This document shows positions 96-6,571 of a stretch of DNA of 6,571 nucleotides, in pieces (the stretch's first letter is position 1; each line of letters opens with the position of its first letter). Below the pieces are notes generated by a model. That model ran no database searches. It worked only from the letters and a program-made list of their open reading frames with translations, and was not told the DNA's origin. A program made the translations under genes and the position numbers. Source of the stretch: a virus (Duplodnaviria; Heunggongvirae; Uroviricota; Caudoviricetes); IMG/VR virus record IMGVR_UViG_2563366935_000003; one strand, 5' to 3'.

Positions 96-350
96 TCTAA
101 AATTGCTATACTATTCATGTTGGTTTTTCTCCACGGATTTACCGACAACCGAAGCCCTGACTGTTCCAGCAGTTGGGGCTTCACTGTTTTGATTTCTTTG
201 CCGCATCAAGCATCACTTCTGAAAACGTGCGCTTGCCACTGAATACTCTTTCTCTTCTCAATTTTTCGTTCGTGCCAAATGATTCGCCATGAACAAAATT
301 TGGTCTTAAAATGGTAATCGCAATCTCTTTGACTACTGCATCCAAGCGAA

Positions 351-503
351 TCACACCGTTACCCCCTCTCTCTTCAGGCTGTCTATCAGGCGCTTGATAA
401 CCTCTGAGTTAAACGACCTGCACTCTTCCTTTGCCCTGCTACCGATAGCATCCTTTAACGACTGCGGCATCCTTACCAAAATCTTACTTATTTCTTTCTC
501 CAT
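351..503 (-). CDS. Arc-like ribbon-helix-helix transcriptional repressor (50 aa)
   Basis: Translation MEKEISKILVRMPQSLKDAIGSRAKEECRSFNSEVIKRLIDSLKREGVTV follows the Arc/MetJ RHH pattern (basic beta-strand RMP..L, then ..GRS.NSE.. helix), recalled resemblance to P22 Arc. ATG at 503 is preceded by a strong SD (GGAGGG, about 5-nt spacing); the longer track ORF to 539 begins at a TTG with no RBS. Confidence 0.7.
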   Translation of the reverse strand: MEKEISKILVRMPQSLKDAIGSRAKEECRSFNSEVIKRLIDSLKREGVTV

Positions 504-539
504 GTTACCCTCCACGCAAACAACTCTTTTCGAATACAA

Positions 540-568
540 AAGATAGCAAAGTGAGTATATCTAGTCAA
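540..568 (-). promoter_or_regulatory. Candidate sigma70 promoter for the Arc-like gene: -35 TTGACT (568-563), 17-nt spacer, -10 TATCTT (545-540)
   Basis: Read from the minus strand; hexamers close to consensus with canonical spacing, about 35 nt upstream of the start codon at 503; the -10 overlaps the left arm of the inverted repeat. Confidence 0.35.
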
Positions 569-593
569 AATTTTTTTGCATACACTTTGCTAT
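543..593. promoter_or_regulatory. Perfect 11-bp inverted repeat ATAGCAAAGTG (543-553) / CACTTTGCTAT (583-593), candidate operator in the divergent intergenic region
   Basis: Exact reverse complements separated by 29 bp, centred between two divergent RHH repressor genes; RHH repressors of this type bind palindromic operators. Confidence 0.45.
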
Positions 594-617
594 CAAATTG
601 AATACCAAAGGTGTTAT

Positions 618-866
618 ATGGCAAAGGGTGTGTCAATTTCTCCAACTACGGTAAGAATCCCTGAATCTTTACGCGAGGCTCTTGCTGTCAGAGCATCAAA
701 AAATGGTCGCTCTGTTAACTCCGAGATCGTCATGATTTTGCAAGCCGCGATTGATGAAGATAGGTCGCCAAAGTCAGTTGAGTCATTTGCTCAGCAAGAA
801 GCTGATAAATTCAAAGAGGCGCTACTTGAGACGCTAAAGACCATGTATGCTAAGGATGAAAAATAA
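618..866 (+). CDS. Mnt-like ribbon-helix-helix repressor (82 aa) with C-terminal helical extension
   Basis: MAKGVSISPTTVRIPESLREALAVRASKNGRSVNSEIVMILQAAI... carries the RHH core (NGRSVNSE) and a C-terminal helical tail (FKEALLETLKTMYAKDEK) like the Mnt tetramerisation helix; length matches Mnt (about 83 aa). ATG at 618; the upstream track extension starts at TTG. Stop overlaps the next start (TAATG). Confidence 0.7.
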   Translation: MAKGVSISPTTVRIPESLREALAVRASKNGRSVNSEIVMILQAAIDEDRSPKSVESFAQQEADKFKEALLETLKTMYAKDEK

Positions 867-1402
867 TGCTGCACACAATTCATTTCTTATGCCCTGTTAA
901 CACTGCCACTGTTGGGCAACTTCAGAACCACTGTCTCACCGCATTATCTCAAGGCGCAACTGAATTAAATATCCATATATCAAGTCAGGGAGGGGAAACT
1001 GCTGCTGGCTTTACTGCGTATAACTTTCTTAAGTCACTCCCTGTTACCGTTAGAACTCACAACATAAGCAATGTTGAATCCATAGCTAATATCGTTTTCC
1101 TGGCTGGCTCAGAACGTTTCGCAAACCCATTATCAAGATTCCTGTTACATCCTCTATTATGGTGCTTTGCCTCCCCAGCCGCCGACCATGCCAGATTGAG
1201 AGAGTACGGGAAATGCCTCGATAACGATCTTGATCGCTTCGTTGAGACGTTCAATATCGACATCGGAACCCATATTAGGTGGGCATCCCTGATAGCAGAC
1301 TCGACCATTTTGGATGCTAACAAGGCTCTTGAGCATGGCATAATTAATTCCATAAAAACTGCAAGGCTGGCATCCAATCAGGCAAACTGGTGGGTTGTTT
1401 GA
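866..1402 (+). CDS. ClpP-family (peptidase S14-like) serine protease paralog, 178 aa
   Basis: Collinear with ClpP core motifs: ISSQGG vs INSPGG, a Ser 29 residues after the GG (VESIA vs GQAASMG), His in RFLLHPL vs RVMIHQP, Asp in ADSTI vs ERDRF, and C-terminal EHGIINSI vs EYGLVDSI. Translationally coupled to the Mnt-like gene. Confidence 0.65.
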   Translation: MLHTIHFLCPVNTATVGQLQNHCLTALSQGATELNIHISSQGGETAAGFTAYNFLKSLPVTVRTHNISNVESIANIVFLAGSERFANPLSRFLLHPLLWCFASPAADHARLREYGKCLDNDLDRFVETFNIDIGTHIRWASLIADSTILDANKALEHGIINSIKTARLASNQANWWVV

Positions 1403-1427
1403 TGGGTAAATCATGATTACTCCTTAT

Positions 1428-1453
1428 AAAAAACCCACCTGACGGTGGGTTTA
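1428..1453. terminator. Bidirectional rho-independent terminator between convergent genes
   Basis: Perfect 9-bp stem AAACCCACC (1431-1439) / GGTGGGTTT (1444-1452) with loop TGAC, A-run upstream and T-run downstream; lies between the 3' ends of the ClpP-like gene (+) and the YafO-like gene (-). Confidence 0.6.
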
Positions 1454-1900
1454 GTCAAACATAGTGTTTCTAAAGTCTCTCGCATACCCTGCTAACACTC
1501 TCATTCTATTATGATTGTTAGCAGACATGTGAGCTACAGGATGAAAAAGAGCAATCAATGAATACCTGTTCTCATCAAAAAGATTTTGTGCATAAACGAG
1601 AGCGGTATTGGATGTTTTATGCCACTGCAACTTTTGCGGTGTGCTGATATCTGTGCCATTTTTTATTGGCTCAAATTTATTTTCACCAATTGCTAAATGA
1701 AGGTGCATAAGGCCTGCATCTTCAATATCAGGAGGTCGATGATAAGAGGTGTCTCTGCCAAAATAGCTGGGCAACGTTCCCGTAGACTTGTAGATGATAA
1801 AATCATCTACAAGTGTTTGTTTTAAATCAGGAAACTCAACAAAAACCGGGGAGAAAAAATAGTCAAAACTATCCTGATTATATTCCACGGTTACTTGCAT
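1451..1900 (-). CDS. YafO-family toxin-like protein (putative ribosome-dependent mRNA interferase), 149 aa
   Basis: Motifs DFIIYKSTGTLPSYFGRD, HLHLA, ALVYAQNLFDE, SLIALFHP and the C-terminal ANNHNRM...FR align collinearly with my recollection of E. coli YafO. ATG at 1900 with SD GAGGT; 8 nt downstream of the preceding gene's stop. Confidence 0.55.
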   Translation of the reverse strand: MQVTVEYNQDSFDYFFSPVFVEFPDLKQTLVDDFIIYKSTGTLPSYFGRDTSYHRPPDIEDAGLMHLHLAIGENKFEPIKNGTDISTPQKLQWHKTSNTALVYAQNLFDENRYSLIALFHPVAHMSANNHNRMRVLAGYARDFRNTMFD

Positions 1901-1908
1901 GTTTTACC

Positions 1909-2475
1909 TCAGTGGAAGTTACCAGAGTGAAACACACGAGTCCCGTGCTCAGCAAGCGCACGCAAACCAGCCATATCTACGGAACTATCAAAAACAACCG
2001 GAACACATGAGCGTTGTTTAATAAGACTATTCAGGTTGGTTACGGCAGATCTGGCATCAGCAACAACGATATAGATATCTCTTGCGATCTCTTTAAAATC
2101 AGCAGAAGCTTCTTTGAATACCGATTTCATTGCCCCTTCAAGTCCTCTCAATTGATGCTCTATCAATCGAGACTTTTCTGGTTCAATGATAGACAACACA
2201 TTGTCTACATTCTCATCGGTAGCGTTTGCAAGAACACGATAAGCGTATTTCAGCATTCGAGACAATTCTTTAATCGAAGACACCGCCTCATGAAGCTCAT
2301 CATTAGCCCGTTCACTGCTGAATGAGGATTGATGGTAAGCGTGCTGAACGTTATCAGTAACAACCACCTCACAACTGAACGCAGAAGCTTGCTGTAATAG
2401 CAAACCTATTGCGACTCCAGCTTTGGCAGCGTTCAAGCTAAACATTTCATCAATCCCATTAGTCTCATTGCTCAT
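1909..2475 (-). CDS. Hypothetical protein (188 aa), first gene of the operon with the YafO-like toxin; candidate non-canonical antitoxin or partner
   Basis: ATG at 2475 preceded by a near-perfect SD (AAGAAGGAGG); the track ORF start at 2505 is a TTG without RBS. No recognisable domain; sequence composition suggests a mostly helical soluble protein. Confidence 0.6.
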   Translation of the reverse strand: MSNETNGIDEMFSLNAAKAGVAIGLLLQQASAFSCEVVVTDNVQHAYHQSSFSSERANDELHEAVSSIKELSRMLKYAYRVLANATDENVDNVLSIIEPEKSRLIEHQLRGLEGAMKSVFKEASADFKEIARDIYIVVADARSAVTNLNSLIKQRSCVPVVFDSSVDMAGLRALAEHGTRVFHSGNFH

Positions 2476-2650
2476 ACAAACCTCCTTCTTATCGGAGATT
2501 ATCAATAGCTATGCATCCATTGAATACACGCTATGCGCAATAAGTTTACGTCACGTGATATCATTATGCAACCACCGTTCTATCACCGACTAACTTTACT
2601 CCCACTCCTATACATCATCTGGTATCCTGCGCAAAACTAAGGAGGTTGGT

Positions 2651-3001
2651 GTGAATGCTCAGTCTGTCATCATGGTTTTCCTTGGGCTGATTGTCGCAAA
2701 ACTATATCCAGACTGGTGGAAAGGGGCATTAGCTACTGTCGCCATCTATTTGCTTTTATCCATCGTTAAGCGATCACTCGCTGAGACCGTAAATCAAGCA
2801 AAACGTTTCTCATTTAAGAGTTTAATAAACTATGTTACTGGGCTTATTTTTTGCCTTTCAATTCTGATCGCTTCGGCTTTTTTGCCCGTATCAATAGCTA
2901 ATTTTTTTGGCGCACCATATGAGGTAGGTTATCTATTCTCTGTTTCCTGTCTTGCCATTGCTCTTCTTTACCTGTGGACGAGATCAAAGAATAAAAATTA
3001 G
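2651..3001 (+). CDS. Small polytopic inner-membrane protein (116 aa, about 4 predicted TM helices), function unknown
   Basis: GTG start 5 nt after a strong SD (TAAGGAGG, 2638-2645); four hydrophobic stretches (SVIMVFLGLIVAKL, ALATVAIYLLLSIV, LINYVTGLIFCLSILIASAFL, GYLFSVSCLAIALLYLW) and a basic C-terminus. Confidence 0.6.
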   Translation: MNAQSVIMVFLGLIVAKLYPDWWKGALATVAIYLLLSIVKRSLAETVNQAKRFSFKSLINYVTGLIFCLSILIASAFLPVSIANFFGAPYEVGYLFSVSCLAIALLYLWTRSKNKN

Positions 3002-3125
3002 CCATCCGTGGCTGCCAGTTATTGAGCTTCTTTTTGTGATGCCTGTGCGACTCTGGTGAGCGATTGTGTGACCGTACTGATCGCTCTGTCATATGCTGTG
3101 CTACCTTTTGGCGTATTTGCCAGAC

Positions 3126-3150
3126 TGAACCGCCCCGGGAATCCTGGAGA
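3126..3150. repeat. IS629 left terminal inverted repeat
   Basis: TGAACCGCCCCGGGAATCCTGGAGA is an imperfect inverted match to the right end at 4411-4435. Confidence 0.8.
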
Positions 3151-3179
3151 CTAAACTTCCTGAGAAAGAGGTAAACAGG

Positions 3180-3506
3180 ATGACTAAAAATACTCGTTTT
3201 TCCCCCGAAGTCCGTCAACGGGCAGTCCGTATGGTTCTGGAAAGTCAGAGCGAATATGACTCACAATGGGCGACAATTTGTTCCATTGCTCCAAAGATTG
3301 GCTGTACGCCGGAGACTCTGCGTGTCTGGGTTCGCCAGCATGAGCGGGATACCGGGGGCGGTGATGGAGGGCTCACCACCGCTGAACGTCAGCGTCTGAA
3401 AGAGCTGGAACGTGAAAAGCGTGAACTGCGCCGCAGTAACGATATCCTTCGCCAGGCTTCCGCTTATTTTGCGAAGGCGGAGTTCGACCGCCTCTGGAAA
3501 AAATGA
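3180..3506 (+). CDS. IS629 OrfA (108 aa; helix-turn-helix / leucine-zipper transposase subunit)
   Basis: [65 protein letters not shown]... is recognised as IS629/IS1203 OrfA; SD AGAGG upstream of the ATG. Confidence 0.9.
3497..3503 (+). other. Candidate programmed -1 ribosomal frameshift site (A-run GAAAAAA) at the OrfA/OrfB overlap
   Basis: OrfB lies in the -1 frame relative to OrfA and overlaps it by 4 nt; six consecutive A (3498-3503) sit in the last two OrfA codons. IS3-family elements make an OrfAB fusion transposase by -1 slippage on A-rich heptamers. Confidence 0.4.
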
Positions 3507-4393
3507 TGCCACTGCTGGATAAGCTGCGTGAGCAGTACGGGGTCGGACCGCTATGCAGCGAACTGCATATTGCCCCGTCAACGTATTACCACTGTCAGCA
3601 ACAGCGACATCATCCGGATAAACGCAGTGCCCGTGCGCAGCGCGATGACTGGCTGAAGAAAGAGATACAGCGCGTATACGATGAAAATCACAAGGTATAC
3701 GGTGTGCGTAAAGTCTGGCGTCAGTTGTTACGGGAAGGTATCAGAGTGGCCAGATGCACTGTGGCACGTCTCATGGCGGTTATGGGACTTGCCGGTGTTC
3801 TCCGGGGTAAAAAGGTCCGTACGACCATCAGCCGGAAAGCCGTTGCCGCAGGCGACCGCGTAAACCGTCAGTTCGTGGCAGAACGACCTGACCAGCTGTG
3901 GGTGGCTGATTTTACTTACGTCAGCACATGGCGGGGCTTCGTCTATGTGGCGTTCATCATTGATGTGTTTGCCGGATACATCGTGGGGTGGCGGGTCTCA
4001 TCGTCCATGGAAACGACATTCGTGCTGGATGCACTGGAGCAGGCGTTATGGGCCCGTCGACCGTCCGGCACGGTCCATCACAGTGATAAAGGTTCTCAGT
4101 ATGTATCGCTGGCCTACACACAGCGGCTTAAGGAAGCCGGATTACTGGCATCAACAGGAAGTACAGGCGACTCGTATGACAACGCGATGGCGGAGAGCAT
4201 CAATGGTCTTTACAAAGCGGAGGTAATACACCGTAAGAGCTGGAAAAACCGTGCAGAAGTGGAACTGGCCACACTCACGTGGGTGGACTGGTATAACAAT
4301 CGACGATTGCTGGAAAGGCTGGGCCATACTCCTCCGGCAGAAGCAGAAAAAGCTTATTATGCTTCCATCGGAAACGATGATCTGGCAGCCTGA
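3503..4393 (+). CDS. IS629 OrfB (296 aa; DDE/RNase H-fold transposase catalytic domain)
   Basis: [30 protein letters not shown]... recognised as IS629 OrfB; IS3-family catalytic-core signatures are visible ([24 protein letters not shown]). Confidence 0.9.
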
Positions 4394-4410
4394 GTTCACA
4401 GATAAAACAC

Positions 4411-4435
4411 TCTCCAGGAAACCCGGGGCGGTTCA
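4411..4435. repeat. IS629 right terminal inverted repeat
   Basis: Reverse complement TGAACCGCCCCGGGTTTCCTGGAGA matches the left end. Confidence 0.8.
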
Positions 4436-5593
4436 CATGATGATTGAGTCTGCGTCCTGTTCAATGCTTCCTGAATCACGCAAATCTGCGTTTGTCGGGC
4501 GTTTGTTTGGTCGCTTCTCAACATCGCGTGAAAGCTGACTCAGGGAAATAACCGGTGTTTTCAGGTCTTTCGCCATCGCCTTCAGGCTTCCGGAGATGTG
4601 AGCAATTGCGAGGTCGTTGCGGTCTGCTTTCGGCTTCTCAATCAGGCCAAGATAATCCGCCATGATGAGTGAGAGGTTTGGATTTTCCTGTTTGTGCCGT
4701 TCTGCGATTGAGCGTATTTCTTCGACCGATAATCGCGAGGCATCGACTACCCATACATCCAAATCTGCAAGCTGACTCATGCCGTTAGCAACACGTGCCC
4801 AGCCCTCGTCATCCATCGATGCAGGATTTCGCAGTACGCTAACCGACATCCTCCCGGCGTTGGCAATGCTTCGCTCTGCAATCTGCAATGCGCTCATTTC
4901 CATTGAGAAAATCAATACCCCGCGCCGGACGTCAGAACCAGGAATAACGCGGCTTGCAACGCCTTCGGCAATCTTCAGCGCCAGTTCGGTTTTCCCCATA
5001 CCAGGACGAGCAGCGATTATCACCAGGTCTTCCGCGTTCATCCCTCCGGTGATGGCATCAAGTTCTTCGATTCCGGTCTTCAGGGTATCGGACTCTTCTC
5101 CGTTCCTCAGACGCCTGTCAAGCGTGTCAGTGTAGTCGGTGATGATTTCCCCTAACCGTACAGGTTTAACCTCGTCACGGGGCTTTCTGATGGCTGAGAG
5201 ACGTTTTACAAGTTCATCCATCGCCTGACTCGATGCGTCGATGGTTCCGCTTTGGATTGGTTCACGCATTTCATCCATGATTTCCAGCACCAGACGGCGG
5301 TGATAGTTATCCGCGACCATTCCGGCATATCCCTTCAGGTTTGCGGCGCTCGGGCAGTTTTTGCTGGTCATCAGGATTGACGTGAAATGCTCCTCTCCGC
5401 ACGCCTCGGCAACCATCAGCGCGTCGATTAGGTTTCTGTTTCTCGCCTGCTTCCGGATAACCTCGAAGGCTTTCCGGTAGAGCGGAATTGAAAACGCTTC
5501 CGGCTCCAGCGTTGCAAGAACGTCACTGGCGGTTGGAGTTAATCCACCAATCAGCAGGCCACCGATAACGCTCGCTTCGATATCCTGTCTCAT
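4433..5593 (-). pseudogene. Phage DnaB-like replicative helicase, 3'-truncated by IS629 (about 55-60 C-terminal residues missing)
   Basis: 386-aa translation with DnaB N-terminal domain, Walker A ([10 protein letters not shown]), Walker B (LIMADYLGL) and the motif [32 protein letters not shown]. Reading frame stops only 3 codons after EQDAD, using the TGA formed by the IS629 terminus (4433-4435), where E. coli DnaB has about 55 more residues. Confidence 0.85.
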
Positions 5594-5947
5594 GCAATCC
5601 CCCTGTCTGCAAACTTCCCTTCCCGAACTCCCGTTAACGAGTCTTCTCTCAGCAGGTAATCAAAATCAGCCGTCCAGCCCGTGTCGTTGTCTCCGAAGTA
5701 AAACGGCTTGGCCTGATGCACAAACGCCCTGACATACGCTCTGAAACCGTCCACGTTTGGCGTTTTCAGTTGCGGGATGATTTTCTTCAGGCGGCGTTTT
5801 CGTTTCTCGTTGACCGCAACAGCGTGTGGCAGTCTGTCACCGACTTCGGTGTTGTAGGCGTTCAGGAAGGATTCGTAGTCGATTCGTTCTGCCTTGCGAC
5901 GTTCAGGTTTAACCTGCCCATCGCCTCCCCCATTGGGGGGTAGGGGG

Positions 5948-5975
5948 GTATTATTTATATTCTTGTTAATACCTT
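5948..5975. other. AT-rich stretch adjacent to the iterons (candidate DNA-unwinding element), next to a G/C-rich near-palindrome CCCCCATTGGGGGG (5926-5939)
   Basis: attatttatattcttgttaatacc is strongly AT-rich relative to its surroundings and lies immediately downstream of the iterons in the gene's direction, mirroring ori-lambda organisation. Confidence 0.4.
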
Positions 5976-5980
5976 CTTGT

Positions 5981-6110
5981 TCATGATGTGCGGTTGTTTG
6001 TGCGGCTTCATGTGCGCTTTCATGTGCGGCATGTACGCTGAAAGCCGCGCTATTGCTGGCTTCATCATGTGCGGCATCATGTGCGGTTGTTTGTGCGGCT
6101 TCATGTGCGG
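5981..6110. repeat. Iteron array (candidate phage replication origin): about 8 copies of a 12-bp unit, consensus yTTCATGTGCGG, in two clusters; includes an exact 31-bp duplication (5986-6016 and 6079-6109)
   Basis: Directly visible tandem periodicity: tgtgcggttgtt / tgtgcggcttca / tgtgcgctttca / tgtgcggcatgt ... catgtgcggcatca / tgtgcggttgtt / tgtgcggcttca / tgtgcggg. Lies inside the initiator gene, as ori-lambda lies inside O. Confidence 0.6.
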
Positions 6111-6354
6111 GTAAATTGTCCATTTTTTGAGCATATTCATGGTAATTTGTGATGGTTATCACACGGCCTTTTTGCTTCTCTCCATCAATGGAGATCATCC
6201 CCTCTTTCACAAAAACCTGAAGCATCCGCTCAACCTGATCACGGCTTGCTGGCTTGCCATGTCTGTCGCATAACTGAAGACCTAAATCAGCTGCTGTCAC
6301 AACCAGTTGACCGGGTTGCAGATGCCATTCATGACCTTTGAAATTCGCTTTGTA

Positions 6355-6571
6355 TGAACCGCCCCGGGTTTCCTGGAGAGTGTTTTATCTGTGAACTCAG
6401 GCTGCCAGATCATCGTTTCCGATGGAAGCATAATAAGCTTTTTCTGCTTCTGCCGGAGGAGTATGGCCCAGCCTTTCCAGCAATCGTCGATTGTTATACC
6501 AGTCCACCCACGTGAGTGTGGCCAGTTCCACTTCTGCACGGTTTTTCCAGCTCTTACGGTGTATTACCTCC
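6355..6571 (-). mobile_element. IS629 3'-terminal fragment in inverted orientation, truncated by the window edge
   Basis: 6355-6571 is the exact reverse complement of 4219-4435 of the complete copy; the terminal IR begins at 6355 (TGAACCGCCCCGGGTTTCC...). Confidence 0.9.
6397..6571 (-). CDS. IS629 transposase OrfB, C-terminal fragment (minus strand, partial at window end)
   Basis: Reverse complement is identical to the 3' end of OrfB; stop codon is at 6397-6399 on the minus strand. Confidence 0.85.
   Translation of the reverse strand, partial: EVIHRKSWKNRAEVELATLTWVDWYNNRRLLERLGHTPPAEAEKAYYASIGNDDLAA

Follow-up and report, generated by a model that had tools for sequence, protein, structure and literature searches.

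The locus under study contains two genes of a phage replication module, both incomplete, between two inverted copies of the insertion sequence IS629, and it raises the question whether the bracketed segment with the helicase and initiator remnants (4436-6354) is a unit of its own or the outcome of separate events in a resident prophage. The window, i.e. the whole stretch of 6,571 nucleotides that was analysed, very probably belongs to a CUS-3-like (P22-like) prophage in a state of decay, resident in an extraintestinal E. coli, in which two separate events shaped the bracketed segment. In event A, an IS629 at a deletion junction would have connected codon 386 of the helicase gene with the final 107 nt of gp16. 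In event B, an IS629 of opposite orientation would have inserted into the initiator gene O, separating codon 61 from codon 62 and duplicating the triplet TAC. The apparent IS-bracketed cassette would then be due to a simple insertion on one side and an IS-linked deletion on the other.

IS629 copies in a gapped scaffold

The window corresponds to positions 9023-15593 of scaffold KE136581.1 (GCA_000407685.1; locus L004), reverse-complemented. Runs of N flank this segment on both sides, so that the window is one whole contig, and both of its ends are assembly breaks within IS629 copies. Repeat analysis revealed three pieces of one insertion sequence. The complete one, an element of 1310 bp on the plus strand (3126-4435; repeat analysis, open reading frames and homology), is bounded by imperfect inverted repeats of 25 nt (IRL 3126-3150; IRR 4411-4435), which match at 23 of 25 positions and begin with TGAACCG. 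Its plus strand encodes orfA (3180-3506; 108 aa) and the overlapping orfB (3503-4393; 296 aa) as well as an ALIL frameshift pseudoknot (3461-3577; RF01497, 120 bits). The frameshift product of 404 aa contains the domains HTH_Tnp_1, HTH_21 and rve (DDE transposase), and PGAP annotates the element with a "programmed frameshift". The sequence is 99.5% identical to features labelled "IS3 family IS629" in records of Stx phages, e.g. LC567824.1, and 96.1% identical (51 mismatches) to the IS629 copy of the O157:H7 strain BB24-1. Size and ends, the frameshifted DDE transposase, the sequence identity and a target duplication of 3-4 bp all agree with IS629, and assignment of the element to IS629, as an isoform, appears justified. 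The target duplications seen have a length of 3 bp, i.e. TAC for the copy in O, AAG for a fourth copy, and ATG in O157 BB24-1.

The other two pieces are right ends. The first, 217 nt on the minus strand (6355-6571; IRR 6355-6379), belongs to the inverted copy in the initiator gene and is 100% complementary to 4219-4435; the remainder of this copy falls into an N-gap, and its far IRL end is visible in the scaffold (L004 7931-9239). The second, on the plus strand (1-95; IRR 71-95), is the right end of a third copy in direct orientation, 100% identical to 4341-4435, the rest of which lies within a scaffold N-gap. The first-pass annotation had named the element IS629 and had noted the inverse orientation of two copies, and both proposals are borne out by these alignments. 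Altogether, scaffold L004 contains four IS629-type copies in the prophage remnant. The fourth copy, at L004 4527-5956 between the early-left genes and cI, is a slightly different isoform with the IRL GGAAATCC and the IRR GGAAAATCGGGG, and it is flanked by the AAG duplication.

The scaffold was assembled from short reads and contains gaps; the join through the internal IS and the lengths of both flanking copies depend on the assembler. Therefore, it has to be considered that a collapsed IS629 repeat was walked through during assembly and that non-adjacent flanks were joined. Such a misjoin is conceivable, as the contig comes from a scaffold with gaps, ends in IS sequence on either side and includes a complete IS. 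IS629 is also a multicopy element; complete E. coli genomes with a match to the window have a median of six matching places. In addition, none of the 5,426 complete E. coli genomes contained a contiguous match to any of the four IS junctions of the window, so that the arrangement has no long-read confirmation in this set. However, every junction has unique sequence, and if the two direct local copies were paired in the sole other way, the immI block would be excised. Furthermore, complete genomes of related strains also link the gp16 remnant via an IS to the early region, and the junction between the IRR and the helicase remnant recurs in assemblies of independent read sets, including L012 (17 samples). 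A misjoin is thus regarded as very unlikely.

The split initiator gene and its putative origin

The O-type initiator is represented by its 3' part, codons 62-315 plus the stop codon, on the minus strand (5590-6354; alignment with the prophage of strain S88). The remnant thus comprises 254 of 315 codons, its reading frame is open from the IS boundary at 6354, and it is identical to residues 62-315 of S88 O at all 254 positions. The first possible start codon is a GTG at 6300 ("MTAADLGL"), which corresponds to residue 80; intact homologs start 79 residues further upstream, and not near MTAADLGL. The remnant overlaps the start of the helicase gene (ATGA).

The first-pass annotation was right that the initiator is disrupted, but it also had the gene lose its 5' end and promoter. 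The latter is not the case, because scaffold L004 contains, on the far side of the IS at 6355, O codons 1-61/62, followed by cII, cro, and cI. One copy of a target-site duplication, TAC, lies at 6352-6354; at the insertion, L004 reads GCCATAC up to the IRL and continues after the IRR with TACAAAGCG (TACaaagcg). The presence of the O 5' part and of cII, cro and cI beyond the IS, together with the TAC duplication, reveals that O was hit at 6355 by a simple IS insertion with a 3-bp duplication. The gene is split, and its 5' end was not lost but shifted away by 1.3 kb, together with the promoter region. The split gene looked truncated because the contig ends inside the IS repeat, and this exemplifies that repeat-terminated contigs can disguise a split gene as a truncated one.

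In the intact O protein of CUS-3, the Pfam domain Phage_rep_O (PF04492) covers residues 20-132, while the remnant of 254 aa gives no match. O is thus split within its N-terminal origin-binding domain, and the gene is presumably functionally broken.

The initiator gene of phage lambda contains the repeats of the replication origin inside its own coding sequence. By analogy with lambda ori, a putative phage replication origin lies within O (5925-6125). Tandem-repeat analysis identified 12-nt periodic repeats of the CCGCACATGA type at 5999-6030 and 6063-6110, which also encode an AHE/AHD-rich linker of O, and the repeats are followed by an A+T-rich stretch and a C6/G5 palindrome. The putative origin would survive, but could presumably not fire on the prophage's own proteins, both of which are broken. 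A scan of 4300-6571 identified no sigma-70-like promoters. Expression of the two remnants would thus need read-through from an IS; transposase read-through of the inverted copy would enter them in the sense direction and might conceivably provide it.

In phage P22, gene 18 encodes the initiator, and the partner encoded by gene 12 is a DnaB-type helicase, and not a loader like lambda P. The module of the window resembles those of lambda and P22 in having an O-type initiator, origin repeats within its gene and a translationally coupled partner gene, and it resembles that of P22 in that the partner is a DnaB-type helicase, as judged from Pfam. Unlike in lambda and P22, both proteins are incomplete, and the module presumably cannot work alone.

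The helicase remnant, the deletions and the order of the prophage

The truncated DnaB-type replicative helicase (4433-5593, minus strand; S88 alignment and Pfam) comprises residues 1-386 of 458. It matches the S88 helicase with 100% identity over these 386 residues, and its stop codon TGA (4435-4433) is supplied by the first triplet of the IS629 end. The first-pass annotation had correctly recognized a C-terminal truncation at the IS end; its estimate of 55-60 lost residues was too low, as 72 residues are missing. The DnaB N-terminal domain is present, and the DnaB_C profile is covered from position 2 to 210 of 255, compared to 2-247 in intact CUS-3 P. In an alignment with E. coli DnaB the cut lies near residue 417, so that the counterpart of DnaB residues 418-458 is missing. 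Judged by E. coli DnaB, the lost segment contains the arginine-finger region as well as the strands that complete the RecA-like fold. It is thus to be expected that helicase activity was lost together with these 72 residues of the RecA-like core.

It could be argued that the short forms are natural, i.e. that this DnaB ends at ...DSIIM and that the initiator starts at MTAADLGL. Both reading frames are open, and the exact protein of 386 aa is encoded on at least 18 contigs. However, the intact proteins have lengths of 458 and 315 aa, and intact helicases do not end at EQDADSIIM, but run 72 residues further. At 8 of the 10 places examined (L004-L005, L007-L008, L010-L013) the gene directly enters an IS629 end, at the other two (L006, L009) it ends with the contig, and a natural stop codon was not seen at any of them. 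In addition, the site is read through in 683 of 697 complete-genome records, the stop codon of the remnant belongs to the IS, and the O remnant no longer scores as Phage_rep_O. It is therefore extremely improbable that these are natural short forms, and this reading is refuted.

In contrast to the copy in O, the IS629 at 3126-4435 is not flanked by a target duplication; its neighbors are GAC (3123-3125) and CAT. This is expected for a deletion junction. On its left side the last 107 nt of a DNA-ejection gene of the P22 gp16 family remain (3019-3125, minus strand); the gp16-family coding sequence of S88 (L015 22924-24936) maps to the window from position 3019 up to 3125, where the deletion has its left edge. 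Compared to S88, the sequence from 2502750 to 2523916 of NC_011742.1 is missing, a deletion of 21,167 bp that was sized against S88 because the immI and gp16 region of CUS-3 is not homologous to the window. The deletion takes the 3' end of the helicase gene, nin, Q, and the genes for lysis, packaging (terminase), portal, coat/head, and ejection. Thus, the helicase gene is indeed cut by the IS at 3126-4435, as had been claimed, but this is the edge of a 21-kb deletion and not a local truncation. This deletion could have arisen when two direct IS copies recombined, or in one step as an IS-mediated adjacent deletion. The copy ending at position 95 marks a further deletion of about 2.95 kb relative to S88, which extends from codon 8 of ant into the gene for an endosialidase-type tailspike; a remnant of the tailspike gene is visible past the N-gap in L004, beyond this copy.

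The order of genes in S88 is the immI block, gp16, other virion genes, lysis, Q, nin, and then P-O-cII-cro-cI. The remnants in the window are collinear with this intact prophage in order and orientation. An inversion by recombination between the two IS copies would make no new junctions and is thus undetectable from short contigs; the collinearity throughout indicates that no inversion has taken place. The intact prophage of S88 represents the un-rearranged arrangement; the IS junctions are absent from the 5,426 complete genomes.

This order also bears on the proposal that the bracketed segment is a composite transposon-like unit, or that an IS-mediated (duplicative) inversion moved or flipped the replication module. 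The geometry is as expected for such events, with two inverted IS629 copies that both have their right ends inward, and the earlier statement that recombination between them would flip and not delete the block is correct. However, the order O 5' part, IS, O remnant, helicase remnant, IS, gp16 remnant is the native one, and the IS at 6355 is flanked by a TAC duplication of its own. An IRL lies at either outer end, and the outer flanks, GAC (3123-3125) and GTA beyond the far IRL, do not constitute a duplication. The junction between the O remnant and the IS is found in none of the 5,426 complete E. coli genomes, and that between the IRR and the helicase remnant is confined to a small number of short draft contigs; none of the contigs retrieved places it in a different genomic context. 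The likeness to composite transposons of the Tn10/Tn5 type consists in a segment that is bracketed by inverted copies of one IS. In contrast to these, the segment has no flanking duplication, the outer ends are left ends, no second copy at another site was found, and the "cargo" consists of two broken genes in native order. A composite or inverted unit is thus highly improbable, and the idea of a composite IS-bracketed fragment, which had been put forward, is unsupported for lack of an outer duplication, the native order and the missing second locus. Instead, the doubly hit replication block is a case of ordinary, already known IS-driven prophage decay and not a new kind of element.

The closest phage match to the block 4436-6354 is the O-P region of CUS-3 (CP000711.1), a P22-like Lederbergvirus of E. 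coli K1 RS218 with an O protein of 315 aa and a P protein of 458 aa; the DNA identity is 98.6% over the whole block. The S88 prophage occupies the same site by tRNA-Arg and intS, and its O and P proteins match the remnants with 100% identity. Because of this identity, the disruptions are probably recent. The differences from CUS-3 and S88 are the split in O and the deletions of 21.2 kb from nin to the ejection genes and of about 2.95 kb from ant to the tailspike gene. The remnant is located between tRNA-Arg plus intS and dsdC, with flanks as in related complete genomes. The markers on the integrase side of L004 are the integrase and a gene of the formate/nitrite-transporter family, and the scaffold also contains an acyltransferase gene and the endosialidase-type tailspike gene. 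A complete P22-like set of virion genes is lacking, as the late genes are absent between 3125 and 4436. The conclusion of the first-pass annotation that the prophage cannot replicate thus very likely holds true, mainly due to the 21-kb deletion, and "replication-dead" understates the damage.

IS629 has been surveyed in O157:H7, where 62% of its copies reside in prophages and duplications of 3-4 bp were found (PMC3271280; PMC4587872). The window shares with these prophages (Rump et al., 2011; Yin et al., 2015) the IS629 family, 3-bp duplications, the preference for prophages, disrupted genes, and deletions edged by IS copies. It differs from them by the non-O157 extraintestinal host, the P22-like prophage of the CUS-3 type, an IS isoform of 96.1% identity, and four junctions that have no counterpart in the 5,426 complete genomes.

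Similar late-region lesions were observed in two related strains. In MS8345 (L002), a gp16 remnant of 207 nt is joined via an IS to the remnant of a Rha-family gene, and in AH20K059 (L003), a gp16 remnant of 1146 nt is joined via an IS to the helicase remnant. These late-region deletions are independent and IS-linked, which suggests that the prophage has been inactivated repeatedly. The K1-associated prophage of the CUS-3 type would thus have been disabled by IS629 several times independently across strains.

The integrase-proximal acyltransferase gene and the accessory genes on the immI side were kept despite the decay. The immI-side block (96-3125) differs from CUS-3; with the prophages of S88, APEC O1, and ATCC 11775 it shares 100% identity. 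Besides Arc and Mnt-like repressors, it encodes a ClpP-like protein (866-1402, plus strand), a YafO-family toxin (1451-1900, minus strand) with a hypothetical protein of 188-198 aa upstream of it (1909-2505, minus strand), and a hypothetical membrane protein of 116 aa (2651-3001, plus strand). Thus, the accessory genes at 576-3001 were retained and the virion genes were lost. The ant gene is cut by the IS629 copy ending at 95 and reduced to 23 nt (96-118, minus strand), while the sar antisense RNA, for which ant is the target gene, is intact (119-185, plus strand; RF00262, 83.9 bits).

IS629 insertions at one site of the helicase gene

The bond at which IS629 meets the helicase gene, ATCATCATG followed by CTC (window 4435/4436), lies in the codons of a conserved motif, directly before its residues LYRE. 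Insertions at or next to this bond were found in two helicase alleles. In the allele of extraintestinal pathogenic E. coli (ExPEC), the right end (IRR) faces the helicase remnant after ATCATCATG in the window, L012 and L013, while the left end (IRL) faces it 2 nt upstream in AH20K059, B20123, and OZ546967. In the allele of O157 and Stx phages, the left end is found at the same bond in BB24-1 (with the ATG duplication), L010 and L011, and in L007 with another isoform, and the right end at the same bond in L008. Further coordinates of the site are 11158-11160 and 12469-12471 in L005 and about 19436 in L003. Altogether, there are at least three independent insertions within 3 nt, i.e. at the same bond or 2 nt off, a minimum that takes possible recombination of alleles and conversion among IS copies into account. 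The insertions occur in both orientations and involve two helicase alleles, at least two IS isoforms, and both ExPEC and O157/Stx-phage backgrounds. A 300-nt segment of the helicase gene around the site is uninterrupted in the 683 of 697 complete-genome records mentioned above. The look-up with the exact protein favors events at the same site; the class represented by AH20K059 was found without this bias.

Two features of the target sequence were considered and rejected. Mimicry of the IS629 ends yielded a best local score of 8, compared to 7.65 +/- 1.4 in shuffled sequences. The motif TCAAT is present four bases upstream of two of the duplications at this locus; it is absent at the third site, and the sample is too small.

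IS629 has been described as an element without target preference, and its insertion-site specificity was called unknown (Rump et al., 2011; PMC3271280). In the literature, nothing specific was found on an IS629 hot spot or on IS629 in a phage helicase gene. Of all the features of this prophage, the repeatedly hit position in the helicase gene is the only one from which something new might be learned. The precise coincidence of the insertions makes us lean, by a small margin, towards a nucleotide-precise IS629 hot spot in this family of phage genes for DnaB-type helicases. If this is true, the site would offer a handle on the target choice of IS629.
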